The notes under the pieces are model-generated. The model had not been told where the DNA came from, did not search any database, and saw only the letters and a list, made by a program, of their open reading frames with translations. From Polyangiaceae bacterium (lineage in GTDB: Bacteria > Myxococcota_A > Polyangia > Polyangiales > Polyangiaceae), in the NCBI GenBank assembly GCA_016715885.1, contig JADJXL010000022.1, positions 11,588 to 75,587 of the forward strand: a stretch of 64,000 nt of DNA, given 5' to 3'. Positions within the stretch are counted from its first letter, which is position 1; the number at the start of each line of letters is the position of its first letter. A program made the translations under genes and the position numbers. Below are positions 7,687-61,026 of this stretch, in pieces.

Positions 7687-9363
7687 ATGCGCTTGATTGT
7701 TTCTCCCACGTTGCTTGCCATTTCTTGCGTCGCACTGTTCACCGCGGGCTGTAGTCCGACGGTCGATTCGTCTCCCTTGGCAACGGGCGGCGCTGGGGGC
7801 GAAGGTGGAGCTGGCGGCGCAGGAGGGGAGGCCGGCCAAGGTGGCGGCGGCGGCCCTTCGTGCATTCCCGAAGCCGAACAATGTGACGGGATGGACAACG
7901 ATTGCGACGAGCAAGTCGACGAGGACTGTCCGTGCATCGATGGTCAAACGCAAGACTGTTATTCGGGGCCGATGAACACGAGCGGCGTGGGCGCTTGCAT
8001 CGGTGGGCAGCAGACATGTAACCTTGCCGGCGAATGGGGACCGTGCATGGGCGAAGTGCTTCCCGGCACCGAAACGTGCAACAACGTGGATGACGATTGC
8101 AATGGTCTCGTCGACGACATGGGGACGACGTCGTGCGGCGTGGGTGCTTGCGGCGCAACGGTATTGGTGTGCGAAAACGGGCAGATGAATAGCTGCGTCC
8201 CGGGCAATCCGTCTCCCGAGCTATGCGATGGGCTCGACAACGATTGCGATCAGCTCGTGGATGAAACGTATCCCGGCAAAGGAAGCGCGTGCGATACCGG
8301 CGTTCCCGGCGCATGCGCGGCAGGGAAAACCGATTGCCTCATGGGCGCACCCATGTGCGTGCAAGACGTCATGCCGACGACGGAGATCTGCAATGGCGTC
8401 GATGACGATTGCAATGGCATGGCGGACGACAACATCGCGGGCACGGGCACGGCTTGCGGGACCGGGCTTGCGGGTGTGTGTTCGCAAGGTACCTATTCGT
8501 GCAAGTTCAACGTCATCGATTGTCATCCGGACATTCCCGCATCGCCCGAAATGTGCAATGGTCTCGACGACGATTGCGACGGCGTGACGGACGAAGACGA
8601 TCCTCAAGGTGGCGCCGTGTGCATGACGGGCATGCCCGGCATTTGCGCGACGGGCATCGAGCATTGCAATGGCGGCGCGATCGCGTGCGTGCCCGATTCG
8701 CTCGGGAATCCCGAGCTATGCAACGGCCTCGACGACAACTGCGATGGCATGGTCGATGAAAACAACCCGGGCGGCAACGCCGCGTGCGGATGCGGCGGCA
8801 CGACGCAATGCCAAAGTGGAGCGCTCAATTGCATCGGCGGCCCGACGACGTACTTCATCGAAGACTTCGCGGACAACGAAGCCGGCTGGACGCTCGATAC
8901 GGAATGGCAGATCGCGCCCGCCGTGTCGGGCTGCAGCGGTTACGATCCCGGTACGGATACGACGCCGACATCGGACAATGGCATCGCTGGCGTTGCCATC
9001 GGTGCATGCGCAGCGACGTCGAGCACGCACCCATACTATTACCTGACGAGCCCCGTCATCAATACGGCAAATGCGCCTGCAGTATTCCTGCAATTCCGAC
9101 GGTGGCTCACGAGCGACTATACGCCGTACATGAAGAACGTGATCGAAGTGTACAACGGCTCGAGCTGGGTGGTCGTTTGGGAAACGTTCGGCTCACCTGG
9201 AGTGACCGACACGTCCTGGCAAACGCCGGTGTACGACATTACGGCGCACAAAAATGCAAATATGCGAGTTCGCTGGGGATTCAATGTCGGATCGACCGGC
9301 GCATTCTCTCGCGGCCAATGGAACATCGACGACGTGCTCGTTGCGTCCGCCGCGTGCCCCTGA
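7687..9363 (+). CDS. Lipoprotein with 8 or more MopE-type putative metal-binding Cys repeats (E.CNG.DDDC[DN]G..DE) and a C-terminal jellyroll/MAM-like domain
   Basis: A GGAGG ribosome-binding site lies 5 nt before ATG 7687. The lipobox reads LFTAGC and is followed by a Gly-rich linker. A C-x-G-x-D-(D/N)-D-C-(D/N)-G motif repeats about every 45 aa. The last 180 aa are Cys-poor beta-rich sequence. Confidence 0.75.
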   Translation: MRLIVSPTLLAISCVALFTAGCSPTVDSSPLATGGAGGEGGAGGAGGEAGQGGGGGPSCIPEAEQCDGMDNDCDEQVDEDCPCIDGQTQDCYSGPMNTSGVGACIGGQQTCNLAGEWGPCMGEVLPGTETCNNVDDDCNGLVDDMGTTSCGVGACGATVLVCENGQMNSCVPGNPSPELCDGLDNDCDQLVDETYPGKGSACDTGVPGACAAGKTDCLMGAPMCVQDVMPTTEICNGVDDDCNGMADDNIAGTGTACGTGLAGVCSQGTYSCKFNVIDCHPDIPASPEMCNGLDDDCDGVTDEDDPQGGAVCMTGMPGICATGIEHCNGGAIACVPDSLGNPELCNGLDDNCDGMVDENNPGGNAACGCGGTTQCQSGALNCIGGPTTYFIEDFADNEAGWTLDTEWQIAPAVSGCSGYDPGTDTTPTSDNGIAGVAIGACAATSSTHPYYYLTSPVINTANAPAVFLQFRRWLTSDYTPYMKNVIEVYNGSSWVVVWETFGSPGVTDTSWQTPVYDITAHKNANMRVRWGFNVGSTGAFSRGQWNIDDVLVASAACP

Positions 9364-16595: not shown

Positions 16596-17863
16596 ACGAC
16601 GATGCATGTTCGAGCTTCGAGCGCGCCTTCGATGCTGCATGGTCTCGCTCGGACGAGATTTTTAACTTGATTCCCACGGACAGGCTGCTCGAGCGGCCCA
16701 TATCGCTACGACACCCTTTTCTTTTTTATCTCGGGCATTTGCCCGCGTTCGCGTGGAACCAAGTGGGAAACGCATTTCTGGGCGAAGGACAGCTCGACCC
16801 GTCGTTCGATACGCTTTTCGAGCGCGGAATCGATCCTGCCGACGACGATCGAGCGCGCGAGCAATCGATATCGAGTTGGCCCGGGATTGGCGAAGTCATA
16901 ACGTATCGCGATCGCGTGAGGAGCGCCATTCGGCAGCGTATCCCCGAAGTCTTGCGAGCTGTGGACGACGTGTTGGGGCAGCATGGGCGCATTTTGCACG
17001 TGGCGATCGAGCACGAGCTGATGCACCACGAGACGCTCATGTACATGTTGGCCCAGTGTCCCGAAGGGACGCTCGTTCGTCCAAAATGGGCGTTGCCACC
17101 CGAAGATGGTCCGGGAAAAAAACCGGAATTGCGGGAAGTGCCTGCTGGAATGGCGGCGGTTGGCGCTGAATTCAATGATGTCGAATTTGGTTGGGACAAT
17201 GAATTTGGCAAAGAAGAAATTTTCGTTCCAGCCTTTCGGATCGACTCTTTGCCCGTTCGTAATCGGGACTGGTTGGAATTCATCAAATCAAATCAGCTCG
17301 ACGAACGATGGTTGCCGGCAGGGTGGTTGAAGCAATGGCGAGAGCTATTCGTGAGGACCGTGTTTGGTCTGGTTCCATTCGAGCTGGCCGAGGGGTGGCC
17401 CGTGCAAGTATCTCGCGAGCAGGCATGGGCGTATTGTGCTTGGCGCGGAGGTCGTTTGCCGACGGAGGCGGACCTGCATCGAGCAGCTTACGGAGATGAT
17501 CACGAGAGAATGCGGCCATGGAGTGATGTTTCGCGCGATCGAGAGGCCGGCGATTTTGGTTTTTCGCGCTGGTACCCGTCACCCACGGGTCGTCATCCTG
17601 CGAGTGCGAGCGTATTCGGTGTCGAGGAGCTCGTGGGCAATGGCTGGGAATGGACGTGTACGCCGTTTTTGCCGCGGCCTGGGTTCAAGCCGTACATTCG
17701 ATCGTATCCAGGTTATTCCGCGGACTTTTTCGATGGTGAGCACGACGTCGTGTTCGGTGCATCGTGGGCGACCGACCCCGTTTTTCTGCGGCGCAGTTTT
17801 CGTAATTGGTATCGGAGCAACTATCCGTATGCGTTTACGAAGTTCCGCGTTTGTTTCACGTAA
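16592..17863 (+). CDS. egtB: Hercynine oxygenase / sulfoxide synthase EgtB (DinB_2 domain + FGE-sulfatase domain)
   Basis: The HX3HXE iron motif (HELMHHE) and the C-terminal FGE-sulfatase-like GNGWEWT motif are present. The ATG at 16592 overlaps the egtD stop (ATGA). ORF 16364 in the same frame is an upstream read-through. Confidence 0.8.
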   Translation: MNDDACSSFERAFDAAWSRSDEIFNLIPTDRLLERPISLRHPFLFYLGHLPAFAWNQVGNAFLGEGQLDPSFDTLFERGIDPADDDRAREQSISSWPGIGEVITYRDRVRSAIRQRIPEVLRAVDDVLGQHGRILHVAIEHELMHHETLMYMLAQCPEGTLVRPKWALPPEDGPGKKPELREVPAGMAAVGAEFNDVEFGWDNEFGKEEIFVPAFRIDSLPVRNRDWLEFIKSNQLDERWLPAGWLKQWRELFVRTVFGLVPFELAEGWPVQVSREQAWAYCAWRGGRLPTEADLHRAAYGDDHERMRPWSDVSRDREAGDFGFSRWYPSPTGRHPASASVFGVEELVGNGWEWTCTPFLPRPGFKPYIRSYPGYSADFFDGEHDVVFGASWATDPVFLRRSFRNWYRSNYPYAFTKFRVCFT

Positions 17864-20177
17864 TCAGCGTGCGCAAACTCGCGACGGTCGCGACGAGCTC
17901 GGTGGGATCGACCGGCTTTGGCACGTGCAGTTGAAAGCCTGCATTGAGCGCTAGAACGCGGTCTTCGGTGCGCGTGTACGCAGTGAGCGCAATGGCGGGG
18001 ACGCTCGCTACGCGGTCGGGCGCTCGAGCGCGTATCTTGCGCATGAGTGACAAACCATCTTCACCGGGCATGGCCAAATCGGAAATGATGACGTCCGGCG
18101 TGAAATCATTCAAAATGCGAATGGCTTCGGCTGCGTCGGCAGCGGGTTTGACGGATGCGCCTGCGATGGTCAGCACTTCTTCGAGGATTTCACGTGCATC
18201 GGGTTCGTCGTCGATGATGAGAATGCCAAGGCCCGTGAGTTTTCTGCCGTCTTGTTTTTGCGTCGCGGCGATGGGGTTTGGCGGAGTTATCGTTTTCGGT
18301 TTGGATATGGGCAGACGTACGGTGAACGTGGAGCCCATGTCGAGACCAGGGCTATGCGCTTGCACAGTGCCTCCATGCGCTTCGACGAGATGTCGAACGA
18401 TGGACAAGCCCAATCCCAAGCCGCCTGAATTACGCGTCAGCGTGCCATCGCCTTGACGGAATCGGTCGAAAATATGTGGTATGAGGTCGGCTCGAATTCC
18501 GCGGCCATTGTCCGACACGCGAATCAAGCCTTCGTCGCCGTCGCGCAGGACGCGCACGTCGATGGCGCCTTCCTTGGGCGTGAATTTGATGGCGTTCGAA
18601 AGGAGGTTCCAGACGATTTGCTGCAGGCGGCTCGGATCGGCAAAGACGGGAAGGCTGGTCGATTCGCACGTCGTTTGAATGCGGATACCTTTGGCCGTCG
18701 CTCCGGGCGAAACCGATTGAATGGCAGCTTCGACGACTTGGCCGAGGTCGACGATGGTTGCATCGAGTCGCAGTTTGCCCGCGGTGATACGGGAGGCGTC
18801 GAGCAGGTCGTCGATGAGTCGAGCCTGATGGCTGGCATTTCGTTCGATGGCTTCGAGCGCGCGCGGTTGGGCGCCTTCGCGCACGGCTCCGGTGCGTAGC
18901 ATACGGGCCCAGCCGAGAATGGCATTGAGCGGGGTGCGCAATTCATGGGACACGACGCCCAAAAATTCATCTTTGACGCGGTTGGCCTCCTGCGCTTCGT
19001 GATAGAGGCGAGCATTGTGGAGCGCCATTGCCGTTCGGTGCGCAATTTCTTCGGCAAATACCACGTCGGCGGGACTAAATTGACCCTGCGAATTGCCGAA
19101 GGCGAGCACGCCGACGGTTTCACCTCGCGCAATGAGCGGAACGATGATGACCGAACGCGGCGTGAGCCCGCGAAGGATATCGAGATGTCGTTCGTTGGCC
19201 GAAATGGTCCTCAAAATGTCGTCATCGACATCCGATAGAAGACGAGGTTTGCCGGTTCGCGCGGCCTCGCTGAGCGGGTGATGCGGGTCGAGCGGGTGCT
19301 CCGTGAATACTTCACGCAGGAGTTTTTCCTGCTCGGGATCCTCGTGAACGACGTTTTCGAACTGCGCTGCGCCGCCACCGGTCACCGTGCAAATCAAGCA
19401 AGAGTGAGCAAAGCTCGGCACCGTGACATGGGCCAGCGCATCGGTAATGGCGGAGGCGTCGAGGGAAGTATTCAGCACCGCGCTTGCTTCCGCGAGCAGA
19501 CCGAGGCGCCGTCGTTCCGTGTCGATTTCCGCCCGCGCTGCGCGCTCGGCTTCGTGCAGACACGCGCGTTCGAGGCATTGTGTGCATGTTCGCGCGACGT
19601 GAAGAATGAAGTCTTGATCTTCGGCCTTGCGGTATTTCGAGGGGGAAAAGCGAACTGCCATACCTCCGATGGCGCGACCATCGACGAGGAATGGCACTGC
19701 AACGACGCTATCGACGTCCTCGCTCCCTGGCATCGATGCCAGCGCCGGATAGAGTGTGCGATAGTCCTCGGCACTTTCGAGAATGACCAGCGCTTTGTGG
19801 CGAATGGCGTCGGTCAAAGGCGATGAAAATGACAGAGATTTTCGATCGTATCGATCGATCGATTCTCGAGAATGTCCAATGCCCCGAACGCAATCGACGT
19901 AATCGGCGCCGGGGGACAATGTCGCCACCATGGCCTTGCAGTTCGGAAGCATGGCCCCGAGGTGATCGACAATAATCTCGGCCACGGTCACGCGGCTCTT
20001 TGCATCCGCGAGATCGGCGGTCATGCGTTGAAGCGCCATGAGGCGCGCCGTCGTTTCTTCAGCAGCGGCCTTGGCCTGCTCGAGCCGCTCGATGTTGCGA
20101 GCAGCAGCCGAATGTTCATCGTCGGTTGACCCAGACGCCAATGCTCGGTTCCGAGCTGAGTGCCCATTGCGTGTCAT
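17856..20177 (-). CDS. Hybrid sensor histidine kinase with GAF-like sensor domains, HisKA + HATPase and a C-terminal receiver domain
   Basis: H-box HELRTPLNAILGW, G-box GGLGLGLSIV, and receiver LIIDDEPD...DLAMPGEDG. Confidence 0.8.
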   Translation of the reverse strand: MTRNGHSARNRALASGSTDDEHSAAARNIERLEQAKAAAEETTARLMALQRMTADLADAKSRVTVAEIIVDHLGAMLPNCKAMVATLSPGADYVDCVRGIGHSRESIDRYDRKSLSFSSPLTDAIRHKALVILESAEDYRTLYPALASMPGSEDVDSVVAVPFLVDGRAIGGMAVRFSPSKYRKAEDQDFILHVARTCTQCLERACLHEAERAARAEIDTERRRLGLLAEASAVLNTSLDASAITDALAHVTVPSFAHSCLICTVTGGGAAQFENVVHEDPEQEKLLREVFTEHPLDPHHPLSEAARTGKPRLLSDVDDDILRTISANERHLDILRGLTPRSVIIVPLIARGETVGVLAFGNSQGQFSPADVVFAEEIAHRTAMALHNARLYHEAQEANRVKDEFLGVVSHELRTPLNAILGWARMLRTGAVREGAQPRALEAIERNASHQARLIDDLLDASRITAGKLRLDATIVDLGQVVEAAIQSVSPGATAKGIRIQTTCESTSLPVFADPSRLQQIVWNLLSNAIKFTPKEGAIDVRVLRDGDEGLIRVSDNGRGIRADLIPHIFDRFRQGDGTLTRNSGGLGLGLSIVRHLVEAHGGTVQAHSPGLDMGSTFTVRLPISKPKTITPPNPIAATQKQDGRKLTGLGILIIDDEPDAREILEEVLTIAGASVKPAADAAEAIRILNDFTPDVIISDLAMPGEDGLSLMRKIRARAPDRVASVPAIALTAYTRTEDRVLALNAGFQLHVPKPVDPTELVATVASLRTLIT

Positions 20178-32022: not shown

Positions 32023-33003
32023 TCAGCGGAAGTGGTCGTAACCTCGTTGTTCCACTGGGACAAACGCTGCTCCGGGGCCATCGAGCACCAAGTCGGAATC
32101 CGTTTTTTCTGACGGAAGCACGCGGCCGATGGGGATGAACCCCGGCGGAACCTGTCCCGCTGGGACCGTCATCACCAGCGCAAAGTCCTCACCGCCATGC
32201 AGCGCCAACTGCAACGGGTCGGCACCTACGATGCGCGCCGCGCGCTCGAGCTCCGGCGTCACGAGCTTCGTCGGATCGAGCGCGATGCGCACGCCACTGC
32301 CTCGAACCAAGTGTCCCACGTCTCTCGCAAGTCCATCGGATACGTCGATGGCAGCCGTCGCGACATCGCGCGCGGCAAGCCCATCCGCAATGCGTGCAAC
32401 GGGACGCCTGTACGCGCGCAGTGCAGGCTCTGCATCAGGGTGCGCATCCGGACGAGCGTTCGTCTTGCCAACCGATGCTTGGAGCAGCAACAGTCCCGCC
32501 GCGGACAAGCCAAGCGGTCCAGCAAGCACGACCGTGTCTCCCGGACACGCTCCCGCGCGTGTGAGCGGGCGACTCGATTCACCGAGCACCGTCGTCGTAA
32601 TGGAGACTTCGCTGCCACGTGCGAGGTTTCCGCCGACGATCGGCATGCCGAGCTCACCCGCCGCTTCGCTTTGACCCTGCAAGATGCCACGCAGGTCGTC
32701 GTCGCTGAAATCGGCTGGCAACACGAGCGCAGCCAAGATGCCGATCGGCGCCGCTCCCATCGCACCAAGGTCACTCGCTGCAGCCATCGTTGCGCGGTAA
32801 CCGACGTCCACCATCGACACGAAGTCGCGACGAAAGTGGACGCCCTCGACTTGCGCATCGATGGTCCACACGAGCGGCGTCTTGCTCGGAGCAAGCACGG
32901 CTGCATCGTCACCGATGCCCACGAGTGTTCGGTCTGCATTACCCGTCGCGAACGTCGAACGGATGAGGTCGATCCGTGCTGCTTCCGAGCTGCGATGACT
33001 CAT
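32023..33003 (-). CDS. thiL: Thiamine-monophosphate kinase (PurM-like fold)
   Basis: The IGDDAAVL...VEGVHF motif is present. Start 33003 was chosen because the ORF extension to 33141 overlaps the upstream kinase gene. Confidence 0.7.
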   Translation of the reverse strand: MSHRSSEAARIDLIRSTFATGNADRTLVGIGDDAAVLAPSKTPLVWTIDAQVEGVHFRRDFVSMVDVGYRATMAAASDLGAMGAAPIGILAALVLPADFSDDDLRGILQGQSEAAGELGMPIVGGNLARGSEVSITTTVLGESSRPLTRAGACPGDTVVLAGPLGLSAAGLLLLQASVGKTNARPDAHPDAEPALRAYRRPVARIADGLAARDVATAAIDVSDGLARDVGHLVRGSGVRIALDPTKLVTPELERAARIVGADPLQLALHGGEDFALVMTVPAGQVPPGFIPIGRVLPSEKTDSDLVLDGPGAAFVPVEQRGYDHFR

Positions 33004-33010
33004 CGCCGTT

Positions 33011-34459
33011 CTATCCGTCGAACCGCACCGCAACGGCAGTCTGCGGCGACGTTTCCGACGCAGGCGCTGCTGGCAGGCGGACGACGAAGACCGCACCTTG
33101 AGGCGTGTTGCTCTCGATGTGCACCGTGCCGTGATGCCCATCGACCAAACGCTTCACGATCGAAAGGCCGAGCCCCGTTCCTTCGTATTCACGCGAATGC
33201 CGCTGATCGACTTGGTAGAACGGATCGAAGACCTTCGTGCGTTCCTCTTCTGGAATTCCGATTCCCGTGTCCGCCACGCGCACTTCGATCATCTGTCGCA
33301 ATGGCGCGAGGAGCACCAAACCAGATTCGTCACCATCTTCGTCGTTCACTTCGACTTGCCTGGCCGATAGCGTGACGCGACCGTTTGTCGGGGTGAACTT
33401 GATCGCGTTCTCCGTCAAGTTGATGAACACCTGACGAAGTCGTTCGGGATCGCCAACGACGACAGGCAAATCTTCCGGCGCGTCGACCTCGAACGTGATG
33501 CCTTTCTTCGATGCTTTCGGAGCGAGCGTCGACACGGCTTCCATGAGCACCGACTTGATGAGCACGTCGCCGCGACGAATCATCACCGTGCCGCTCTCGA
33601 GCTTCGACAGGTCGAGAAGACTCATGATGAGCTCGAGCAAGTGATTGCTCTTGGCTTCGATGATCTTCACGAACTCGAGTTGCCCGGGAGTTAGCTCGCC
33701 GGCGATTCCACCGGAAAGCATTTCGCTGTAGCCGAGGATCGACGTCAGCGGCGTGCGAAGCTCGTGTGACACCGTCGCAAGGAAGTGGCTCTTGAGTTTG
33801 TCGAGCTCCTTTTGCTTGGCATAGGCCTGCTCGAGCGCAGAGGTCTTCTTCGTCAGTTCTTTGAAGCTCTCGCGCATCGACGCGATGTGCATCGTCGACG
33901 TCAAGTGCGCTTTGTGCCCACTCCAGAGCACGACATCGAGCACGGCGACGAGATGCTTGGCGACCGCCTCCGCAACGACCTCCGTCGCATGCGGCATGAG
34001 TGGCAAAAGCTCCGCGACCCGCGCCACGTCGATACGGCTGCTCACCTTGAACAGCGCATCGGGAATGGTTTCAATCGTCGGATCGACATACGGTCCGACG
34101 ATCACGCGGCCGATGACGTCGCCTTCGTATTGAATCGGCATCAGCCGATACCGGGCGCCCGTAAAGCACGGATGCTGCGTGCCTTCCTTCGATACGAGGC
34201 GCAAGCGTTTGACCTCGGCGACGACCTTGGCGCATGCCCGCCGTCCCGACGGCTCCTCGTTCACCATCGCGCAGAGGCTGCATTCGTTCGTCGTGCTGGC
34301 CAAATTCGTGCCCGAGCCCGAAACGATGCGCACATGCATGCCGAAGATCTGCTCGAACGAACCCACCATCGTTCGAAGCGACTCGCGATCGACGAGATCC
34401 TCGAGTCGGGGCGGGCCCAAGCCAATCGCATCGGCGCCCGTCGAAGCTTCGTCATTCAT
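33011..34459 (-). CDS. Sensor histidine kinase with an N-terminal Cys-containing PocR-like sensor domain
   Basis: HisKA H-box HELRTPLTSILGYSEML and HATPase GTGLGLSIVKRLVDGHHG. The N-terminal 200 aa carry C..C....C...C and PCF motifs reminiscent of PocR. The start is set at Met 34459, immediately after the stop of the mglA-like gene. Confidence 0.75.
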   Translation of the reverse strand: MNDEASTGADAIGLGPPRLEDLVDRESLRTMVGSFEQIFGMHVRIVSGSGTNLASTTNECSLCAMVNEEPSGRRACAKVVAEVKRLRLVSKEGTQHPCFTGARYRLMPIQYEGDVIGRVIVGPYVDPTIETIPDALFKVSSRIDVARVAELLPLMPHATEVVAEAVAKHLVAVLDVVLWSGHKAHLTSTMHIASMRESFKELTKKTSALEQAYAKQKELDKLKSHFLATVSHELRTPLTSILGYSEMLSGGIAGELTPGQLEFVKIIEAKSNHLLELIMSLLDLSKLESGTVMIRRGDVLIKSVLMEAVSTLAPKASKKGITFEVDAPEDLPVVVGDPERLRQVFINLTENAIKFTPTNGRVTLSARQVEVNDEDGDESGLVLLAPLRQMIEVRVADTGIGIPEEERTKVFDPFYQVDQRHSREYEGTGLGLSIVKRLVDGHHGTVHIESNTPQGAVFVVRLPAAPASETSPQTAVAVRFDG

Positions 34460-35187
34460 GGCGTTCCCCCAGGCAGAACGTTCGACCCGACCGCGCCCAT
34501 ACGCGTCGCAATCAGCTCGCGGAACGGCGTCGTCACGCCCAATTGCTGCGCTGCCGTTCGGACCATTTCGTCGCCGTCGATCGACAACTTCTTCGCCAGT
34601 TGATGGCTCTGATCCAGCGAACGCCATGTGAGCCAGAGCAAACAGATGAACGTTTCGACTACCCCGATGCCTCGCGTCGCAACCGCTCGAAACACCGGCT
34701 CACTGCCTTTCGCAGCAAGACGCACGAGCTCTTCGTCGGTCCGAATGTCCGGCATGTCGCGCTTGTTGAACTGAATCACGAGCGGCATCTTTCTGATGTC
34801 GATGCCGCTCTCCTTCAAGTTCTGACGCAAATCCAAGAACGCCTCGGCGTTGCGGTTCGTCTCGGATATGCGCGAGTCGACGATGAGCGCGACTCCATCG
34901 GCACCTTGAAGCACGAGCTTGCGTGTCGCTGAGTGGATGGGTTGTCCAGGAACGGTGAAAAGCTTGATGCGAAGAGAGAAGTCACCATCCTTCGACTTGA
35001 ACGTCAGCGGCAAAAGGTCGAAGAAAAGCGTGCGATCGTCCTGCGTTTCAAGCGTCATCAGGCGACCGCGCGTGTCGGACCCAGCGCGCGCGTGCAAGGC
35101 CACGAGGTTCGTGGTCTTGCCGCTCAACGCTGGCCCGTAATACACGAGCTTGATGGTGATCTCGCGAGAGGCGAAATCGAGCTGCAC
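34456..35187 (-). CDS. MglA-family Ras-like small GTPase paralog with a 50-aa C-terminal extension
   Basis: About 40% identical to M. xanthus MglA over 190 aa: SREI.IK.VYYGPALSGKTTNL, DRTLFFDLLPL (Arg-finger position), TVPGQ (catalytic Gln), NKRD. Confidence 0.85.
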   Translation of the reverse strand: MQLDFASREITIKLVYYGPALSGKTTNLVALHARAGSDTRGRLMTLETQDDRTLFFDLLPLTFKSKDGDFSLRIKLFTVPGQPIHSATRKLVLQGADGVALIVDSRISETNRNAEAFLDLRQNLKESGIDIRKMPLVIQFNKRDMPDIRTDEELVRLAAKGSEPVFRAVATRGIGVVETFICLLWLTWRSLDQSHQLAKKLSIDGDEMVRTAAQQLGVTTPFRELIATRMGAVGSNVLPGGTP

Positions 35188-35246: not shown

Positions 35247-37031
35247 TCACGATGCGGCCACTTTCTCCTGCGATGCGCCCGACGCCCACACACCACTGCG
35301 CAGACTTTCCAGTTGTTCGATCACACCCGCGAGCGCCTTTGCTTCCGCATCACACGCTGCAATCGCCGTCTCCACGCTGAGCGCTGTGTTCGCTCGTTCA
35401 GCCTTCGCAGCACCGAGCACTTCGATGACCTCGCGATGCAGCTCTTCACCAGCCGTCACGACCCACGCATCGAGCCTTTGCGCGAACTCCTGAATCATCT
35501 CGTCGAGCTTCGGACCAACCTTCGTCGCAGCTTCACGCACGGCAATCGGCGCAAGCTCCTTCGCCCGCTTCTTCGTCTCCGTTTCGATCATTCCCTTCAC
35601 GTACACGGCCAGCACCGGAGCCGCGACCGCGAGGATTCCACCAAGAAGCACGTTGAACGTCATCACCGCGAGGCCCGCGCCAAACAGCGCAATGACGCCG
35701 ACGTCGTATCCGAGCGTGTCGACTTCGACGTTCGGTGTGCGAAGGTTTGCCCCGAGCGCCTCACGCACGCGCTTGGCAACCTCGTGCGCATCGTCGCGAA
35801 CGAGCGCGATCGTGCGCTCCGCGAGCGCTTCGAGCGCGTTGGCAATTTCCTTCGTCTCCGCCTGCGCCCAATCCGCAAACGTTCGCTCCAGGAACGGCCC
35901 GAGGTGCACTTTCAATTCATCTGCCGGCGCATTGTCGACGACATCGGGAATCTGTCGCGTCACGTCGGCGACAAACCTTTCGAGGTCCCGCTGCACCCAC
36001 GCCTGAATCCTCGCGACCTCTTCGCGAATCCCAAACCGCCGCTCCTCGATCGTCTTCGATTGTCCCGCGAGGTCTCGCTCCAGCATCTCGATCCGCCGGC
36101 TCAGCTCTTCACTCGTCATCGCCGCTGCCCGACGTCGCGCGTCGATGCCCTTGCCAAGCATGCGCGCCGCCTCGATGCCTTCACCGAGCGCGTTGTCGAG
36201 CAAGATGCGCCCGCGCTCTTCCGCCAAGAACGTCGTCAGGTGCTGCAGCAATTCGGGCATGCCGCTCTCCGTCGCTTGCCCATCGAGCGCCTTCCTCGCA
36301 CACACCGGAAATACGACCGGACTTCGCACCAGCTTGGCCAGCTCCGAACGAATGTACGCGAGCGCTTCGACCTCTTCGTCGGAGCTCCAAATATCGCGCT
36401 TCGTCACGACGAAAACGATCTTGTCGCGCGATTGCCCGAGGAGTTTTTCATTCAAGAACACCCGCTCGCTCTCCTTGAGCGGCTGACCCGCATCGAGAAG
36501 AAAGAGCACCGCGTCCGAACGAGGAATGTAGCTGTACGTGATGTCCGCACGCTGAAGCGACAGGTCGTTCACGCCTGGCGTGTCGACCAAAACGATGCGC
36601 TCGCGAAGGATCTCCGCCGGGTAATACACTTCGAGCCGATTCACGTCGTTCGCGACGCTTTCGGTCCCTTTTTCCTGACCAACCGCAAACTTGCGCACTT
36701 CCTCGAACGCCATCGTTTGACGTTCACCCGAAGCTCGCACGAGCTCTGCGCGAGGCTCGGCCGCATATTCGAGGTGGTGAATCACGGCCGTCGTGGGTGT
36801 GACGCCGACCGGGAGAACTTCTGCTCCGAGCAGCGCGTTCACGAACGTCGTCTTGCCATGGTTGAACTCGCCGACGACGACCAAGTGAAACCTGTCGGCT
36901 TCGAGTTTGTCGACGACATCGGTGCCGATACGACCGGCAAGCGATTTGGCGCCTACGCGAGCGGCAATCGTCACGACGTTGCGCAGCGCCGTCGCAACCT
37001 CGAGCTGCTTCGTGCGAAATGATTCGAGCAT
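35247..37031 (-). CDS. Bacterial dynamin-like protein (BDLP), large GTPase
   Basis: G1 GEFNHGKTTFVNALLG, G3 DTPG, G4 TKRD; length 594 aa with long helical stalk regions. Confidence 0.8.
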   Translation of the reverse strand: MLESFRTKQLEVATALRNVVTIAARVGAKSLAGRIGTDVVDKLEADRFHLVVVGEFNHGKTTFVNALLGAEVLPVGVTPTTAVIHHLEYAAEPRAELVRASGERQTMAFEEVRKFAVGQEKGTESVANDVNRLEVYYPAEILRERIVLVDTPGVNDLSLQRADITYSYIPRSDAVLFLLDAGQPLKESERVFLNEKLLGQSRDKIVFVVTKRDIWSSDEEVEALAYIRSELAKLVRSPVVFPVCARKALDGQATESGMPELLQHLTTFLAEERGRILLDNALGEGIEAARMLGKGIDARRRAAAMTSEELSRRIEMLERDLAGQSKTIEERRFGIREEVARIQAWVQRDLERFVADVTRQIPDVVDNAPADELKVHLGPFLERTFADWAQAETKEIANALEALAERTIALVRDDAHEVAKRVREALGANLRTPNVEVDTLGYDVGVIALFGAGLAVMTFNVLLGGILAVAAPVLAVYVKGMIETETKKRAKELAPIAVREAATKVGPKLDEMIQEFAQRLDAWVVTAGEELHREVIEVLGAAKAERANTALSVETAIAACDAEAKALAGVIEQLESLRSGVWASGASQEKVAAS

Positions 37032-37056: not shown

Positions 37057-37950
37057 CTATCCAAAAACCTTGATGAATCCATGAACTTGGTCGTCGACTT
37101 CCTCCATCGACAAACCTTTTCCCTCTTGCCCCACGTGATGCATGTAGAGCTCGCTTTGCGCGAACGTACGTAGCGCCTTCACGCGCGTCGGTACCCACGG
37201 ATGCGTCTGAAGAAGCTCGCGAAAACGTCCCACGCTCTCCTTGCCTTCTTCGTGCTGCGCCAAGAATGCTTCCAAGTTCAGCTCGGAATAAAGCTTGGCC
37301 GAGCCTAGTGCGAGCTTGGCAAGCGCGCGCGTCGAAACGTCGAGGTTGCGGGAGCATAGAAGGCTCGCGCGATCGCAGGTGATCTCCGCTCGTCGCAACC
37401 AGCTTCGGAGAGGAATCATCGCTGGATAAACGATCCACTGGACGAAGATCGAAACCATGACCTGCAAGTAGTGCATTGCGGTCAAGTACACGACGTGGCT
37501 GTTGTGGATGTGCCCGCACTCGTGACCGATGACGCTGCGCAATTCTTCATCCGTGAAGTGATCGACGAGCGCCGAATGGATCATGATGAAGGAATCGTCG
37601 TTCGTCCCGTACGTCGCAGCATTCATCTGCGGGCTGTTGACGATGTAGACCGTAGGCGTGGCAATGCCGAGCGTCTGCGCGCATTCGGCCGCTAGACCAT
37701 GCACGCGTGGAAACTGATTCGGCCCGACTTTGACTCCGTGACCCAAGAGATCAGCCTTGCCTGATTCCTTGAAAAAACGAACCGACGCAGCCACCGCAAG
37801 CTCGACCGGCTTCATCCTCTCGAATGCCATGCGTGTCGCGTGATCGGACGCGTACGCGTACGCATGACCCCCACCGTCCGATCCACCCGCGCGTTGCTCT
37901 TTGCGGCTCGCGACGAAGCCTTTGAAATCGAGCGTTCCGACTTGTGCCAT
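37057..37950 (-). CDS. M48-family Zn metallopeptidase (HtpX-like)
   Basis: HExxH in IGHECGHIHNSH; length 297 aa. Confidence 0.7.
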   Translation of the reverse strand: MAQVGTLDFKGFVASRKEQRAGGSDGGGHAYAYASDHATRMAFERMKPVELAVAASVRFFKESGKADLLGHGVKVGPNQFPRVHGLAAECAQTLGIATPTVYIVNSPQMNAATYGTNDDSFIMIHSALVDHFTDEELRSVIGHECGHIHNSHVVYLTAMHYLQVMVSIFVQWIVYPAMIPLRSWLRRAEITCDRASLLCSRNLDVSTRALAKLALGSAKLYSELNLEAFLAQHEEGKESVGRFRELLQTHPWVPTRVKALRTFAQSELYMHHVGQEGKGLSMEEVDDQVHGFIKVFG

Positions 37951-38164: not shown

Positions 38165-39994
38165 ATGCCTCAAATCTACGGAAACACGAACGGGCTCAGC
38201 CCCGCCGCACACAAGACACTCGAACGCATCTACCGCCGTAAAGTGCCCCTCGAGCACATCGCGACGCCGGAGCTCATCAAGTCGCTCGCTGAAGCATCCA
38301 AAGAGACGGGCCGCCAAGTTGGTGCTCTCGTTCATCGATCAGGCGCGATCGACTACGTCATCGTTGGTGATGCAACGAAACTCATGCTCCCCGACATCGG
38401 ACGCCTCCGCGCGGCCGAAGGACGCTTTCGTGCACTGCGTCTCGTCCACACGCACCTCTACAACGAGCCGCTCACGCGCGATGACATCGTCGACCTCGTC
38501 CGCCTGCGTCTCGACCTCGTCGCCGCCATTCAGCTATCCGCCGAAGGCGAAGCGAAGACGATGGACTACGCGTACAACACGCCGCCTTCTCCCGTCGCTG
38601 CGGATGAAGATCCACGCAACCGACTGCCTTACAGGCGCGTCGAGCCGCAACCGATCGGTCGCATCGATACGGACTTCGGTGCGCTCATCGCCGCGCTCGA
38701 AGACGAATTCGCGAAACGTTCACGCACCGTTTCGACGACGGCCAAAGACGGTCGAGCCATCCTCGTGCACGTCGCGGAAAAGTCGAAACAAGGCGCATAC
38801 ACGAACGCAGAGGAGAGCTTGCGTGAACTGTCCGAGCTGTCACGCACGGCCGGTGTCGACGTCGCCGACACGGTCATTCAGCTTCGCGAAAGGATCGACC
38901 CGCGCCTCATCGTTGGTAAGGGCAAACTCGACGACATCGTCTTGCGCGCGGCCGAGCTCGATGCGGCCACGCTCGTTTTCGATCGCAATTTGAACCCGTC
39001 GCAGGCTTCGGCGATCGCCAAACATTCGGATCTGAAGATCCTCGATCGAACGCAGCTCATTCTGGACATCTTCGCGCAGCGCGCCGAATCGGCCGACGGC
39101 AAGCTTCAAGTGGAGCTGGCGCAACTCAAGTACGCGCTTCCGCGTTTGTCCCAAAAGGACGATTCACTCTCGCGTCTCACCGGCGGCATCGGCGGCCGTG
39201 GCCCTGGCGAAACCAAGCTCGAAATTGGACGTCGGCGCGCGAAAGAACGCGTGAGCTTTCTCGAGGACGAGCTCAAGAAATTGAGCCGTCAGCGTGAACA
39301 ACGCAGGCGCAAGCGCTCGAGACAAGGCGTGCCGATCGTGAGCATCGTGGGCTATACGAACGCGGGCAAGAGCACGCTGCTCAATACGCTCACGGGTTCC
39401 GACACGATCGCCGAGGACAAACTCTTCGCGACGCTCGACACGCGTTCGCGAAGGCTGCGTTTTCCGGAAGAGCGTGAGGTGATCATCACGGACACCGTGG
39501 GCTTCATTCGCGAGCTGCCCAAGGACCTGTTTGCAGCGTTTCGCGCAACGTTCGAGGAAACGGCGGATGCGGATCTTCTGCTGCACGTGGTCGACGCGAG
39601 CGATCCTGCGCGGGATCAGCAGATCGCCACGACGGAGGAGCTGCTTGGGGAGCTTGGTCTGGCGTCGATTCCGCGCATCGTGGTGTTCAACAAGATCGAC
39701 TTGATCGAGCCGGGTGAAGCGCGAAGGCTGCTCGTGGGACGCAAAGATGCGGTGATCACGAGCGCGCGCGATCGCGAATCCACGCGCGCGCTGCTCGCCA
39801 TGATTGCTTCACGTTTGAAGGAACGATGGGAACGGTCGAGTTTGTCTGGGTACAGCAGTGCGACGGACGAACCGCAACTCGACGCGGGCGATGAAGACGT
39901 TGCAGCGGTAGCGATGCTGGAAAATTCGTCGCTCACGACGCTCGAAGAAATGCTGGCGAGCAAGCGGTATCGTCGGACCACGATTGGGGCCTGA
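38165..39994 (+). CDS. hflX: GTPase HflX (long form, about 170-aa N-terminal extension)
   Basis: HflX N-domain coiled coil with G-domain SIVGYTNAGKSTLLN, DTVGF, NKID. Confidence 0.85.
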   Translation: MPQIYGNTNGLSPAAHKTLERIYRRKVPLEHIATPELIKSLAEASKETGRQVGALVHRSGAIDYVIVGDATKLMLPDIGRLRAAEGRFRALRLVHTHLYNEPLTRDDIVDLVRLRLDLVAAIQLSAEGEAKTMDYAYNTPPSPVAADEDPRNRLPYRRVEPQPIGRIDTDFGALIAALEDEFAKRSRTVSTTAKDGRAILVHVAEKSKQGAYTNAEESLRELSELSRTAGVDVADTVIQLRERIDPRLIVGKGKLDDIVLRAAELDAATLVFDRNLNPSQASAIAKHSDLKILDRTQLILDIFAQRAESADGKLQVELAQLKYALPRLSQKDDSLSRLTGGIGGRGPGETKLEIGRRRAKERVSFLEDELKKLSRQREQRRRKRSRQGVPIVSIVGYTNAGKSTLLNTLTGSDTIAEDKLFATLDTRSRRLRFPEEREVIITDTVGFIRELPKDLFAAFRATFEETADADLLLHVVDASDPARDQQIATTEELLGELGLASIPRIVVFNKIDLIEPGEARRLLVGRKDAVITSARDRESTRALLAMIASRLKERWERSSLSGYSSATDEPQLDAGDEDVAAVAMLENSSLTTLEEMLASKRYRRTTIGA

Positions 39995-56265: not shown

Positions 56266-56338
56266 GCTGGCGTAGCTCAATCGGTAGAGCACCTGCCTTG
56301 TAAGCAGGGGGTTAGGGGTTCAAGTCCCCTCGTCAGCT
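56266..56338 (+). tRNA. tRNA-Thr (anticodon TGT)
   Basis: Cloverleaf gctggcg / D-arm agctcaatcggtagagc / anticodon loop cTTGTAa / T-arm ggttcaagtcc / cgtcagc. Confidence 0.85.
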
Positions 56339-56483
56339 CCGTGGGGTTCAGACGGGGGGCGAACCCGGTGGCAGATCATGAAGAGAACGTAAAGGCCGAT
56401 TGAGGAACGGGAGAGACGAGAGCCAAGGAGACGCGTACTGAGACAAACCGTGAGTAGACACGGGATCGTTTGCATTGACATAT

Positions 56484-56567
56484 GGAGGGTTGCCCGAGCG
56501 GCCAAAGGGAGCAGACTGTAAATCTGCCGGCGATGCCTACGTTGGTTCGAATCCAACACCCTCCACC
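56484..56567 (+). tRNA. tRNA-Tyr (anticodon GTA), long variable arm
   Basis: ggagggt...gcagactGTAaatctgc...ggttcgaatcc...accctcc. Confidence 0.85.
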
Positions 56568-56652
56568 GAAACGCCGAAAGGTGTTTCGACCAGCAGGGCC
56601 GGCTCGATCGTTTGAGGACGAAGCAAAGGGGAAACTCGATGCTTTCAGATTC

Positions 56653-56728
56653 GCGGGCGTAGCTCAGTTGGTAGAGCGTCAGCCTTCCAAGCTGAACGTC
56701 GCCGGTTCGAACCCGGTCGCCCGCTCCA
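56653..56728 (+). tRNA. tRNA-Gly (anticodon TCC), CCA encoded
   Basis: gcgggcg tagctcagttggtagagc ...cTTCCAa... ggttcgaaccc cgcccgc tcca. Confidence 0.85.
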
Positions 56729-56738
56729 CCGGCCCATT

Positions 56739-56814
56739 GCCCACCTAGCTCAGTTGGTAGAGCACGTCCTTGGTAAGGACGAGGTCGTCGGTTCAAGCCC
56801 GATGGTGGGCTCCA
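56739..56814 (+). tRNA. tRNA-Thr (anticodon GGT), CCA encoded
   Basis: gcccacc tagctcagttggtagagc ...tTGGTAa... ggttcaagccc ggtgggc tcca. Confidence 0.85.
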
Positions 56815-56872
56815 CGAAGGGAAGAATTGCTCGCGCGACCGAATTGGTCGGCAATCGTCAGGAGACAGCTCG

Positions 56873-58063
<1,191 letters not shown>

Positions 58064-58074
58064 CGGGTGACGAG

Positions 58075-58239
58075 GTGCAGGCCAGCGGTGGGCGCAAAAC
58101 GCGAGAGACGGTTTCGTTGGCCTGCACCGAGTGCAAGATGAGGAATTACAAGACGACGAAGGCTCCCGGTAGCCACATAGAGATCAAGAAATTTTGCCCG
58201 ACGTGCAAGAAGCACACTATGCATCGGGAGACGAAGTAG
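58075..58239 (+). CDS. rpmG: 50S ribosomal protein L33
   Basis: Starting at GTG 58075 gives a 54-aa protein, ...[45 protein letters not shown], with the conserved L33 Cys4 Zn-ribbon motif. It was found as the tail of a mixed-frame ORF. Confidence 0.75.
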
Positions 58240-58276
58240 AGGTTCCGCTCGGCTCGCAAAGTGCCAAGCGGACTGA

Positions 58277-58349
58277 AGGGGTATAGCTCAGTTGGTAGAG
58301 CAGCGGATTCCAAATCCGCAGGTCGGGAGTTCGAGCCTCTCTGCCCCTG
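58277..58349 (+). tRNA. tRNA-Trp (anticodon CCA)
   Basis: aggggta tagctcagttggtagagc agcgga-ttCCAaa-tccgc ...ttcgagc... tgcccct g. Confidence 0.85.
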
Positions 58350-58461
58350 CTGGGGCCCTTTTTCAGTAGCGGTACGGCAGCGAGATAGGGCGCCTGCTCA
58401 AAGATTCGGGTTGGTTGTCGATGCTTTGGTGAGCATCGATGGTGTGGTCGAGACAAAGGCG

Positions 58462-59100
58462 ATGGCAACACGAAAAGAAAAAGATGCGGCGAAGAAAGGC
58501 AGCGAAGAGGCTGCTGACGACGCTGCTCGGGACGAGGGCTCGGAAGCCTCGCTCGTGGTGCGTGAGTCGTCTGATCTCGAAGCAGCCGCAGGCGATTCGG
58601 AAGAAGCGGAAGAAGAAGAGTCGCAAGACGGCGAGCAAGACGAAGCGGCTGCGGATGACTCGGAAGACGCCGTTGCGCGGCCGCTCGGCGCCGACCGTTA
58701 TGTGATGGCTGGGTTTTTCGCGGCAGCCATTCTTGGTGGGTACATTCTTGGCAAGGTGGTTCAGACCCTCTGGTCGGATCTTGCTAGCCGCGATTGGTTC
58801 AACCAATCCTTGCCCTCGCTTGCGGCAGTGCCCGAAGAGAGCCGGACGACCTTCGCGATGGTCTTTGGTGGCATCGTTGCTCTCGTGGTGGTGCTTCGAA
58901 CGTATCGTCGTCCTGATGTGCGAACGTGGACCGACGAAGTGGCTTCGGAGCTCATGAAGGTCAAATGGCCGACGAAGAAGGACGTCACGAACTCGACGTT
59001 GGTCGTCATTGCAGCAAGTTCCTTTGCAACGTTGTACCTAGCGTTGCTCGACAGGTTGTGGTCGTTCGTGACCAGCATCGTCTACGGGACCGGGAGCTAG
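58462..59100 (+). CDS. secE: Preprotein translocase subunit SecE with a long acidic N-terminal extension
   Basis: Conserved position between tRNA-Trp and nusG; 3 TM helices; the C-terminal part contains the conserved KVKWPTKKDV motif. The start is taken at ATG 58462, after the tRNA. Confidence 0.75.
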   Translation: MATRKEKDAAKKGSEEAADDAARDEGSEASLVVRESSDLEAAAGDSEEAEEEESQDGEQDEAAADDSEDAVARPLGADRYVMAGFFAAAILGGYILGKVVQTLWSDLASRDWFNQSLPSLAAVPEESRTTFAMVFGGIVALVVVLRTYRRPDVRTWTDEVASELMKVKWPTKKDVTNSTLVVIAASSFATLYLALLDRLWSFVTSIVYGTGS

Positions 59101-59121
59101 TCCGTTCGGGAGCCACGAATC

Positions 59122-59652
59122 ATGGCGAAGAAGTGGTACGTCATTCACACCTACTCGGGATTCGAGGCGAAGGTGCGCGATGCGCTCCAGCAGCGGGCCA
59201 AGCAGCATGGGCTCGACGACAAGATTGGGGAGATCCTGATCCCGAGCGAAACGGTTACGGAGAACCGGCCTGGCGGTAAGACGCGAGTTCGTCAGAAGTT
59301 GAGCCTGCCGGGGTACATTTTCGTCGAGATGGACATGAGTGAGGTCGTGTGGCATCTCGTCAAGGACACGCCGAAGGTAACTGGTTTCATTGGCAACCAG
59401 ACGCCGCAGGAGGTGCCGGCGCCGCAGATTGAGAGTTTGCGGCGAGGCATCGTCGAGGGGGCGGTCAAACCCAAGCCGAAGCTGACTTTCGAGGTAGGCG
59501 AAGAAGTTCGCGTGCTCGATGGGGCTTTCGCCAACTTCACGGGCACGGTGGATGACGTGAAGATGGATAAGCAGAAGCTGAAGGTGAAGGTGTCTATTTT
59601 CGGGCGCCCCACGAGTGTGGAGCTTGATTTTTCAGCCGTGGAGAAGCGTTGA
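59122..59652 (+). CDS. nusG: Transcription termination/antitermination factor NusG
   Basis: MAKKWYVIHTYSGFE...KOW motif; length 176 aa. Confidence 0.95.
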   Translation: MAKKWYVIHTYSGFEAKVRDALQQRAKQHGLDDKIGEILIPSETVTENRPGGKTRVRQKLSLPGYIFVEMDMSEVVWHLVKDTPKVTGFIGNQTPQEVPAPQIESLRRGIVEGAVKPKPKLTFEVGEEVRVLDGAFANFTGTVDDVKMDKQKLKVKVSIFGRPTSVELDFSAVEKR

Positions 59653-59709
59653 GCGACGCTGCCGCGCGGTAGAGAACGGTTCATTTCCAGAACAGACGGG
59701 TAATTAGCA

Positions 59710-60153
59710 ATGGCGAAGAAGGTCACCGGGTACGTCAAGCTCCAGCTTCCTGCGGGGAAGGCCAATCCTTCGCCGCCAGTTGGTCCTGCGCTTGGGCAGC
59801 ATGGTGTGAACATCATGGCGTTCTGCAAGGACTTCAACTCGCGGACGTCGTCGCAGGAAGGGATGATCATTCCGGTCGTGATCACGGTGTATTCCGACCG
59901 GTCTTTTACCTTCGTTTTGAAGACGCCTCCGGCGTCGGTTCTTTTGAAGAAGGCTGCTGGGCTTCCGACGCAGAAGAAGCCTGGAGCGGGTTCCAAGGAG
60001 CCCAACAAGGTGAAAGTGGGTCAGGTTACCCAGAAGCAGCTTCAGGAGCTTGCACAACTCAAGATGCAAGACATGAACACGACAAACCTCGAATCCGCAA
60101 TGCGGAGCATGGCGGGCACGGCTCGTTCGATGGGTATTACGATCGTCGATTGA
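59710..60153 (+). CDS. rplK: 50S ribosomal protein L11
   Basis: [36 protein letters not shown]. Confidence 0.95.
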
Positions 60154-60315
60154 GGGCGCAGGTCGCGCTCGTTGCGGGCTGTCGTACTCGCATTCGGCGC
60201 TTGTGCTGCGTAGTCGTGGAGCGGTAGAAGAGCACCCTCTCGTGATGAGAGGAACAGCACCACGGTTGAACGGCGCACCGTGGGAGGCGTAAGCCGATAG
60301 GGAATAGGAGGGCAG

Positions 60316-61026
60316 ATGCCGAAAGTCGCCAAGAAACGCGCTGCGGTCCAAAGCTTGGTCGATCGTACGCGCAAGTACTCGCTTCATGAAGCGTGTACGC
60401 TTGTTAAGAAGGCTGCTACGGCGAAGTTCGACGAAACGGTCGACATCGCAGTGCGGCTCGGCGTGAACCCGCGTCATGCCGATCAGATGGTTCGTGGAGC
60501 TGTGGTTTTGCCGCACGGGACTGGCCAAAGCGTTCGGGTCCTCGTCTTCGCCAAGGGCGAAAAGGCGAAGGATGCGGAGGCAGCAGGCGCAGACTTCGTT
60601 GGCGAAGCCGATCTGGTGGCCAAGATCCAGGAAGGCTTCATGGACTTCGACCGGGTCATCGCGACACCGGACATGATGGGTTTGGTCGGTAAACTCGGCC
60701 GTATCCTTGGTCCGCGCGGACTCATGCCGAACCCGAAGGTCGGAACGGTGACTGTCGATGTGAAGACGGCCGTTTCCGAAGCGAAGGCAGGCAAGGTCGA
60801 GTATCGGGTCGAGAAAGCGGGCATCGTGCACGCTCGGATCGGCAAAGTCTCGTTCAAGGAGGAGGCGCTCGCAAAGAACGCTGAAGCCTTGATCCAGGCT
60901 CTGGTCCGCGCGAAGCCATCGACGGCCAAAGGGGTGTATCTGCGGAGCATCACCATGTCGTCCACGATGGGGCCCGGTGTGCGGATTGATCCGGTGCATC
61001 TCAGCGGTGCGGCGGAGGAGGGCTGA
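60316..61026 (+). CDS. rplA: 50S ribosomal protein L1
   Basis: 236 aa: [16 protein letters not shown]... Confidence 0.95.

Follow-up and report, generated by a model that had tools for sequence, protein, structure and literature searches.

A SofG-type MglA-family GTPase gene overlapping a histidine kinase gene in a Polyangiaceae bacterium

The GTPase gene and its product

We examined a stretch of 64,000 nucleotides (64 kb) from a Polyangiaceae bacterium (contig JADJXL010000022.1 of assembly GCA_016715885.1), referred to throughout as the window, which has a G+C content of 60.8%. On its minus strand lies an open reading frame (ORF) that starts with GTG, ends with TGA and encodes a protein of 243 residues. 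A previous sequence-only reading had described this protein as an unusual paralog of the GTPase MglA, with a C-terminal tail and no cognate MglB. We found that the ORF product is a genuine Group-1 MglA-family GTPase, that it groups with the myxobacterial GTPase SofG, and that its gene overlaps a histidine kinase gene, an arrangement that recurs in several phyla. The GTPase gene, its G-domain motifs and the kinase gene are located as follows.

34456–35187, minus strand: SofG-type small GTPase gene (reading of the ORF, phmmer against the PDB, Foldseek, identity to a Myxococcus protein cluster and support for the clade)
34603–35187, minus strand: G domain, residues 1–195, the equivalent of full-length MglA (alignment to MglA residues 4–187; Foldseek)
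35113–35136, minus strand: P-loop GPALSGKT, residues 18–25, whose Ala20 corresponds to MglA Gly21 and Ras Gly12
35017–35037, minus strand: Switch I/G2 motif DRTLFFD with the intrinsic arginine finger R52, invariant in the alignments
34942–34956, minus strand: G3 motif TVPGQ, residues 78–82, with the catalytic Gln82, read from the sequence and invariant in close homologues
34456–34459, minus strand: ATGA overlap of the GTPase stop (TGA) and the kinase start (ATG), read from the sequence; the kinase start is called here on contigs with an identical protein
33011–34459, minus strand: soluble histidine kinase of 482 residues (Pfam PocR 1.7e-19, HisKA 1.5e-19, HATPase_c 7.5e-29)

When the GTPase was searched against the PDB with phmmer, all of the chains that it matched were MglA entries, among them M. 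xanthus MglA (6h17, E=1.3e-49, residues 3–187) and Thermus MglA (3t12, E=3e-47). M. xanthus MglA used as a tblastn query was 44.5% identical to the protein over 191 residues, and identities to MglA spanned 44–50% in the phmmer and tblastn comparisons. An AlphaFold2 model computed from an alignment of 90 sequences had a mean predicted local distance difference test score (pLDDT) of 83.6 and a predicted template modelling score (pTM) of 0.86, and Foldseek matched it to MglA structures including 6h17 with a template modelling (TM) score of 0.89, normalised to the target, 193 columns being aligned with 6h17. Pfam and NCBIfam gave no specific family for the protein, with Arf and small_GTP appearing as weak, sub-threshold matches. 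The description of the protein as an MglA paralog is therefore borne out by phmmer, tblastn and the AlphaFold2/Foldseek comparison.

The GTP-binding motifs GKT and NKRD (residues 141–144) are intact, and R52 aligns with R53 of MglA. Group 1 of the MglA family is defined by an arginine beside the threonine that is conserved in the G2 motif (Wuichet and Sogaard-Andersen, 2014; PMC4316618). We looked for this form in the wider family of short, tail-bearing proteins to which the window protein belongs, using a non-redundant set of 63 loci drawn from a scan of species-representative genomes (80 loci) together with metagenome look-ups. The Arg-Thr form of G2 is present in 63 of the 63 members and TVPGQ in 61 of them, and the window protein has the Group-1 form of G3, that is, TVPGQ and not DxxGQ or GTPGQ. 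The catalytic arginine and glutamine were rightly read as intact at the outset, and we conclude that the product of the ORF is a Group-1 MglA-family GTPase.

Relationship to SofG

The protein was compared with P0383, a Myxococcus cluster of 239-residue proteins that includes those of M. fulvus and M. stipitatus and that was reached with a family member from Cystobacter fuscus as query. The two are 51% identical over 241 residues, the tail included (E=2e-82). In Myxococcus sp. CA040A the P0383 gene lies one gene away from two genes for PilT-like ATPases of 568 and 368 residues; in M. xanthus, MXAN_6705, which has a long N-terminus, and MXAN_6706 adjoin sofG, which is MXAN_6703 (PMC13584747). 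Because P0383 lies close to two PilT-like genes, as sofG does to MXAN_6705 and MXAN_6706, we took P0383 to be the Myxococcus ortholog of SofG. In a neighbour-joining tree of 85 sequences, 64 short, tail-bearing proteins, among them the SofG ortholog and the window protein, were separated from 21 canonical or long MglAs, among them M. xanthus MglA, with a bootstrap of 98/100.

A published table of Group-1 proteins (PMC4316618) lists one orphan of 237–241 residues for each Myxococcaceae genome, the M. xanthus one being SofG (MXAN_6703, 239 residues after re-annotation). For Sorangium cellulosum So ce56 it lists sce7248 (196 residues, coupled to mglB), sce1402 (196 residues, orphan), sce0386 (242 residues, orphan) and sce2413 (433 residues). 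Homologues of 242 residues from Sorangium are 74–77% identical to the window protein, and sce0386 is probably its counterpart and direct ortholog, a match made by length and species and not by the So ce56 sequence. We conclude from these sequence relationships that this Polyangiaceae gene is orthologous to sofG, which encodes the second of the MglA-type polarity GTPases in myxobacteria. The gene is a member of an already known kind and not a new type of paralog, and the tail and orphan status that had made it look unusual are typical of the SofG-type clade.

A histidine kinase gene follows the GTPase gene

The kinase encoded immediately after the GTPase has an intact H-box (SHELRTPL) and no receiver domain. 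The same four-nucleotide overlap between the two genes was seen in three Sorangium genomes and in Myxococcus, and [A/G/T]TGA occurs at the GTPase stop in 37 of the 63 loci. A histidine kinase gene lies directly downstream of the GTPase gene in 53 of the 63 short-form loci (about 85%), the Myxococcus sofG locus included, against 0 of 20 loci for canonical or long MglAs. Two further loci stand outside this count, L049, where the kinase was missed by the ORF filter, and L080, where the contig ends too early. At six distant metagenomic homologue loci, whose GTPases are 44–50% identical, a kinase is also found downstream.

Most of the 80 loci from the scan of species-representative genomes show the pairing. 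Among the Myxococcota, it is present in Cystobacter, Archangium, Enhygromyxa, Plesiocystis and Kofleriaceae, and beyond this phylum it was found in Geomonas/Geobacter, Thermodesulfovibrio, Magnetomicrobium, Marinobacter, Rhodoferax and Desulfocapsaceae. Ten kinases from outside the PocR-positive lineages gave Pfam matches to HisKA and HATPase_c only. When their N-terminal 130–200 residues were compared with PocR-type kinases by profile–profile alignment (hhalign), the two were homologous with a probability of 98–99% and E of 1e-14 to 1e-21, across Myxococcota, Geobacter-like, Nitrospirota and gamma/beta-proteobacterial loci. Since the kinase N-termini are homologous across lineages, we take the kinases to be one family that was inherited along with the GTPase.

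In the kinases of the non-PocR lineages (L048, L050, L054, L055, L057, L061–L063, L068, L071, L075, L083, L086 and L090, mostly just after about 5650) the N-terminal domain is shorter. Profile alignment showed this domain to be a homologue of PocR that is missing the cysteine-bearing segment and keeps the conserved linker helix LTSxMHxxxVxxSYxEL, as in a sensor that has undergone reduction.

In one clade, made up of seven loci (L036, L040, L041, L042, L044, L045 and L047, with the match mostly at about 5001–5680), the GTPase keeps the tail motif and no kinase gene lies downstream. Inspection of the neighbouring ORFs by eye, with no domain search, suggested that genes resembling those for methylmalonyl-CoA mutase and the GTPase MeaB lie upstream and that RibBA-like, MoxR-like and other genes follow downstream.

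We found no mention of a link between SofG and a kinase in the searchable literature, although subscription papers may contain one. The 2014 survey of the family states that Group-1 neighbourhoods 'vary widely', and the kinase pairing is not mentioned there (PMC4316618).

MglB and the P-loop

The absence of an MglB gene was confirmed for the whole window. M. xanthus MglB (a query identical in sequence to PDB 6h5b_B) gave a best E of about 2 against the window with phmmer and tblastn, a hidden Markov model built from six MglBs gave a best E of 0.68, and Pfam scans of 37 predicted window proteins found no Roadblock domain. In a positive control, this MglB query detected MglB beside long-form MglAs at Planctomycetota and Acidobacteria loci (E 1e-24 to 1e-49). 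There is no Roadblock/MglB gene within the 64 kb window. MglB was likewise found in the flanks of 0 of the 63 short-form loci, compared with 5 of 20 long or canonical loci, and orphan status is the rule for SofG-type genes. Small genes upstream of the GTPase gene at the distant loci L009 and L011 were considered as hidden GTPase-activating proteins (GAPs) and rejected, as by eye, with no domain search, they looked like zinc-ribbon and transmembrane proteins and not like Roadblock proteins. At Planctomycetota loci with long-form MglAs of 320–400 residues (L056, L065, L076 and L085), mglB lies directly downstream and not upstream.

The lack of an adjacent mglB gene had been taken to mean that there is no cognate MglB. 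That none is adjacent, or present in the window, holds; the further step does not follow, since MglB has been reported to act as a GAP on SofG in trans, so that an absent neighbouring gene does not imply an absent GAP. The reports in question, from 2024 (PMC11016934) and 2026 (PMC13408092), both cite Kanade et al. (2021) and state that MglB is a SofG GAP that dissociates from SofG-GTP. According to an earlier paper, SofG has arginine-dependent GTPase activity in vitro, MglB does not stimulate it and the SofG GAP is unknown (PMC4316618). The expectation that the protein should be competent for hydrolysis only with a GAP is not what this paper reports for SofG. The same source records an mglB–mglA pair elsewhere in the Sorangium cellulosum genome (sce7248).

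Across the 63 SofG-type proteins, the position equivalent to Ras G12 is alanine in 46, proline in nine and glycine in eight, the glycine group including Cystobacter and Myxococcaceae-type loci; P0383 also has glycine. Substitutions at the G12/G21 position impair hydrolysis in Ras and MglA, and MglA with the G21V change is locked in the GTP form. Many SofG-type members may, for this reason, be slow or GAP-insensitive switches.

The C-terminal extension

Two segments could be distinguished in the region that follows the G domain, the first of which overlaps its end.

34537–34617, minus strand: family-wide extension core, residues 191–217, with no more than three gaps per column in 63 of 63 short-form GTPases; helices at 197–201 and 205–215
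34459–34536, minus strand: distal tail, residues 218–243, GVTTPFRELIATRMG followed by a disordered end; alignable in about 20 of 63, from Polyangiaceae and near relatives

Alignment showed that the protein continues past the end of MglA for about 48 residues (196–243). A tail of about 50 residues had been recognised beforehand and called hydrophobic and basic; the tail is real and conserved, whereas its composition is neutral, with a net charge of +1 and a mean Kyte–Doolittle hydropathy of -0.03 over residues 196–243. The hydrophobic stretch FICLLWLTWRSL that had been quoted as extension belongs to the G domain, as it lines up with TLKAVAKLVLTEL, the helix that closes the G domain of MglA, and FICLLWLTW (residues 180–188) is inside the corresponding helix, modelled by AlphaFold2 at 176–195. 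The 120 best homologues have 234–313 residues (most 239–254), are 70–95% identical and cover 93–100% of the query; those with named organisms come from Polyangium, Sorangium and Polyangiaceae (the best named ones being 85–88% identical), and the tail columns are conserved in their alignment. The identical protein is present on four independent metagenome contigs. The G+C content of the window and the identity of 85–88% to the best named homologues mark the source bacterium as an uncultured relative of Polyangium.

The 63 short-form GTPases share a core motif, derived in the present analysis and not taken from the literature, of [LI][DE]xx[HY]x[LF]xx[KR][FLH]G[LVI]xxxxF[LIV]xx[VLI]xxx[LVF]G. 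Glycine occupies position 202 in 45 of the 63 and phenylalanine position 208 in 53 of the 63, the window protein having S202 and M208 instead. The motif is missing from canonical and long-form MglAs, in agreement with the initial remark that the tail is absent from canonical MglA, and yet the tail is common to SofG-type proteins and not peculiar to this one. Beyond the core, the pattern GVTTPxxELLAxRMGG (residues 218–232) occurs in only about 20 members, from Polyangiaceae and near relatives. AlphaFold2 placed helices at 197–201, 205–215 and 222–227, with pLDDT means of 87–90 in 10-residue blocks, and residues 233–243 (pLDDT below 50) form a disordered end. The alignment and the model are best explained if the extension is a folded appendage of helices and a defining feature of the SofG-type clade as a whole, and not a membrane anchor.

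We considered whether the tail acts in cis, independently of the kinase, by packing beside the last helix, on the G-domain face that in MglA takes up the C-terminal helix of MglB, and there tuning nucleotide exchange or blocking that MglB binding mode. The tail is a direct continuation of the last G-domain helix in a confident and compact model; MglB, a GAP for SofG, dissociates from SofG-GTP, unlike from MglA (PMC13408092); and the kinase-less clade still has the tail motif. However, such a role would be compatible with kinase binding and would not exclude it. We judge it unlikely that this is what the tail is for.

A second suggestion, made in the sequence-only reading, is that the tail targets the protein to the membrane as an amphipathic or polybasic tether, like the lipidated or basic C-termini of Ras and Rho. 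The extension itself is real, and some windows of 11 residues near 189–191 and 204–207 have a moderate hydrophobic moment, of up to 0.58. The near-neutral charge and hydropathy noted above are not those of an anchor, the hydrophobic stretch that had been cited is the last G-domain helix, and the tail blocks are confidently modelled short helices within a compact structure and not a floppy helix. What is conserved, moreover, is a set of specific residues (Gly202 and Phe208) and no pattern of charge or hydrophobicity, and SofG of M. xanthus has been reported to localise via the bactofilin BacP and not the membrane (PMC4085708). Membrane targeting is thus improbable; the other half of the suggestion, that the tail binds a partner, may still be right.

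It could also be argued that the GTPase is the main MglA polarity switch of this organism, with a tail added and the neighbouring mglB gone. All of the Group-1 catalytic motifs are kept, and the identity to MglA is 44–50%. This is very improbable, because the protein groups with SofG and not with MglA at a bootstrap of 98/100, because So ce56 has both a separate 196-residue MglA coupled to MglB (sce7248) and a 242-residue orphan, and because synteny with the Sorangium locus of the 242-residue protein is complete. Finally, the chance that an error in annotation or sequencing produced the extension is negligible, as the coverage of the 120 homologues, the conservation of the tail columns, the identical protein on four independent contigs and the stop/start overlap kept in Sorangium and Myxococcus exclude a mis-set stop or frameshift, and neither such an error nor an MglB gene in the operon was found.

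Neighbouring genes

The GTPase and kinase genes lie within a co-directional cluster with the following further members.

37057–37950, minus strand: M48 peptidase, the first gene of the cluster (Pfam Peptidase_M48 5.9e-26), at the same place in Sorangium
35247–37031, minus strand: dynamin-like GTPase of 594 residues, 59 nucleotides upstream of the GTPase gene (Pfam Dynamin_N 3.2e-32)
32023–33141, minus strand: ThiL-like gene of the AIR-synthase family after the kinase (Pfam AIRS and AIRS_C), given as the longest ORF; its true start is probably about 8 nucleotides past the kinase stop

The whole order, M48 peptidase, dynamin-like protein, GTPase, kinase and ThiL, is the same in Sorangium. On contig L001 a gene of 326 residues is called 8 nucleotides after the kinase, and an AIRS-family gene follows the kinase at many distant loci. 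The dynamin-like gene is upstream in Sorangium (L004–L006) and in Polyangium L032, is nearby in L017 and L035 and is absent in other lineages. We therefore rejected it as a partner in the conserved unit, as it is a neighbour in Polyangiaceae only; in this family one operon may contain two GTPases that differ in class. A scan of the cluster for promoters and terminators returned fewer sites than chance alone would give.

Of the 37 predicted window proteins scanned, none was seen to be a bactofilin, a pilus ATPase or a stand-alone response regulator. A hybrid histidine kinase of 773 residues with GAF, HisKA, HATPase_c and receiver domains (17856–20177, minus strand) is encoded about 14 kb from the SofG–kinase pair. 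An HflX-type GTPase of 609 residues (38165–39994, plus strand) has recognised domains from residue 216, its N-terminal 200 or so residues being without a family match, and a 621-residue version is encoded at the same place in Sorangium.

Elsewhere in the window, 13–3489 (plus strand) encodes a protein of at least 1158 residues that runs off the window start and has five proprotein-convertase P-domain and four DUF4215 matches, and 7666–9363 (plus strand) encodes a 565-residue protein with three MopE-type metal-binding motifs; the two are likely to be repeat proteins that are secreted. Five transfer RNA (tRNA) genes (Thr, Tyr, Gly, Thr and Trp) at 56266–64000 are apparently arranged around a tuf-secE-nusG-rplKAJL-rpoB cluster, judged from ORF size and order only. 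This tRNA/ribosomal cluster would show that the window is chromosomal, with an ordinary housekeeping context.

Among the more distant homologues, metagenome-assembled genomes of Holophagae type encode proteins of about 785 residues (L072, L079 and L092) with an N-terminal MglA domain and a C-terminal end that is receiver-like by eye.

A proposed GTPase–kinase pair

We propose, from the linkage of their genes, that the GTPase and the kinase form one signalling pair. The GTPase would bind GTP and hydrolyse it by means of its own arginine finger and glutamine, as its motifs and the biochemistry of SofG suggest, and may be acted on in trans by an MglB from another locus, by analogy with M. xanthus SofG, so that no adjacent mglB would be needed. 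The GTPase and the PocR-type kinase constitute an overlapping two-gene unit that has been co-inherited across several phyla, in which the kinase may control the nucleotide state of the GTPase, or the GTPase may switch the kinase, and the C-terminal extension is a candidate contact or docking surface for the kinase. Taken as a whole, an account in which the protein is a SofG ortholog with its own GTP hydrolysis, MglB in trans, a folded tail and a two-gene unit that is proposed to act as a pair is, in our view, very probably the right one. We are considerably more tentative, and rather doubt than believe, that the SofG-type GTPase and the PocR-type (or reduced PocR-like) kinase are an ancient, co-inherited G protein–kinase unit of Myxococcota, Geobacter-like bacteria, Nitrospirota and some gamma/beta-proteobacteria, in which the kinase would be the missing dedicated regulator or effector of SofG and the C-terminal helices its docking surface.

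Several points weigh against the account of a SofG ortholog paired with a kinase. Gene linkage in itself shows no physical or functional interaction. The seven-locus clade keeps the tail where no kinase gene follows, so that binding the kinase would not be the only role of the tail, unless in those genomes the kinase gene now lies at another site. Orthology to SofG was established through the Myxococcus cluster and synteny, and not with the DK1622 SofG sequence itself, and the tree is a distance tree of 200 columns. The published statements on MglB and SofG are in conflict (PMC4316618 against PMC11016934 and PMC13408092). Lastly, Ala20 may render this GTPase slow or GAP-insensitive, unlike the glycine-bearing Myxococcus SofG, and as P0383 has glycine where the window protein has alanine, the two GTPases, M. 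xanthus SofG and this one, may have different kinetics.

The regulation of SofG in M. xanthus is unsettled, as papers disagree on MglB as its GAP and neither an exchange factor nor a signalling input surfaced in the papers that we searched; the kinase is a concrete candidate partner. If the two genes do form a unit, SofG and the window protein would gain an input or output pathway that is undescribed in searchable papers, and a functional pairing would add, beside the actinobacterial conservon, a second case of a Ras-like switch wired to two-component signalling. The kinase pairing is the only feature that we did not find described in the searchable papers, the remainder of the gene being ordinary for the SofG family.

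Comparison with known systems

SofG of M. xanthus (MXAN_6703) works with the bactofilin BacP and places the pilus ATPases PilB and PilT at the pole (PMC4085708). The window protein resembles it in belonging to the same clade, in its 51% full-length identity including the tail, in its size (243 versus 239 residues) and in its arginine finger and TVPGQ motif, and the gene, like Myxococcus sofG, has no adjacent mglB and is directly followed by a PocR-type kinase gene with overlapping stop and start codons. It differs in having a P-loop alanine where the Myxococcus and Cystobacter proteins have glycine, in its Polyangiaceae-type distal tail (residues 218–232), and in its upstream genes, which encode the dynamin-like protein and the M48 peptidase here and an acetyltransferase and PilT paralogs in Myxococcus. 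BacP binding and PilB/PilT positioning are known for M. xanthus SofG only. The sce0386 protein of So ce56, catalogued only, is likewise an orphan Group-1 GTPase, of 242 residues, and the Sorangium cluster is syntenic.

With the MglA–MglB systems of M. xanthus (MXAN_1925/1926) and Thermus thermophilus, the protein shares the fold (TM 0.89 to 6h17), the Group-1 motifs and 44–50% identity. It is set apart from them by the lack of mglB within about four genes or elsewhere in the 64 kb, by the 48-residue helical extension, by its separate clade and by the linked kinase gene.

The actinobacterial conservon (CvnA–D; PMC4316618) also has an MglA-family GTPase beside a histidine kinase, the unit lacks a response regulator, and its arrangement suggests that the G protein is the partner or output of the kinase (PMC4316618). 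However, CvnD is a Group 2 protein without the arginine finger, and the conservon has a Roadblock protein, CvnC and a membrane-bound HAMP kinase, whereas the pair in the window consists of a Group-1 GTPase and a soluble PocR-HisKA-HATPase_c kinase without HAMP, and includes neither Roadblock nor CvnC. The likeness between the two is therefore one of logic and not of membership.

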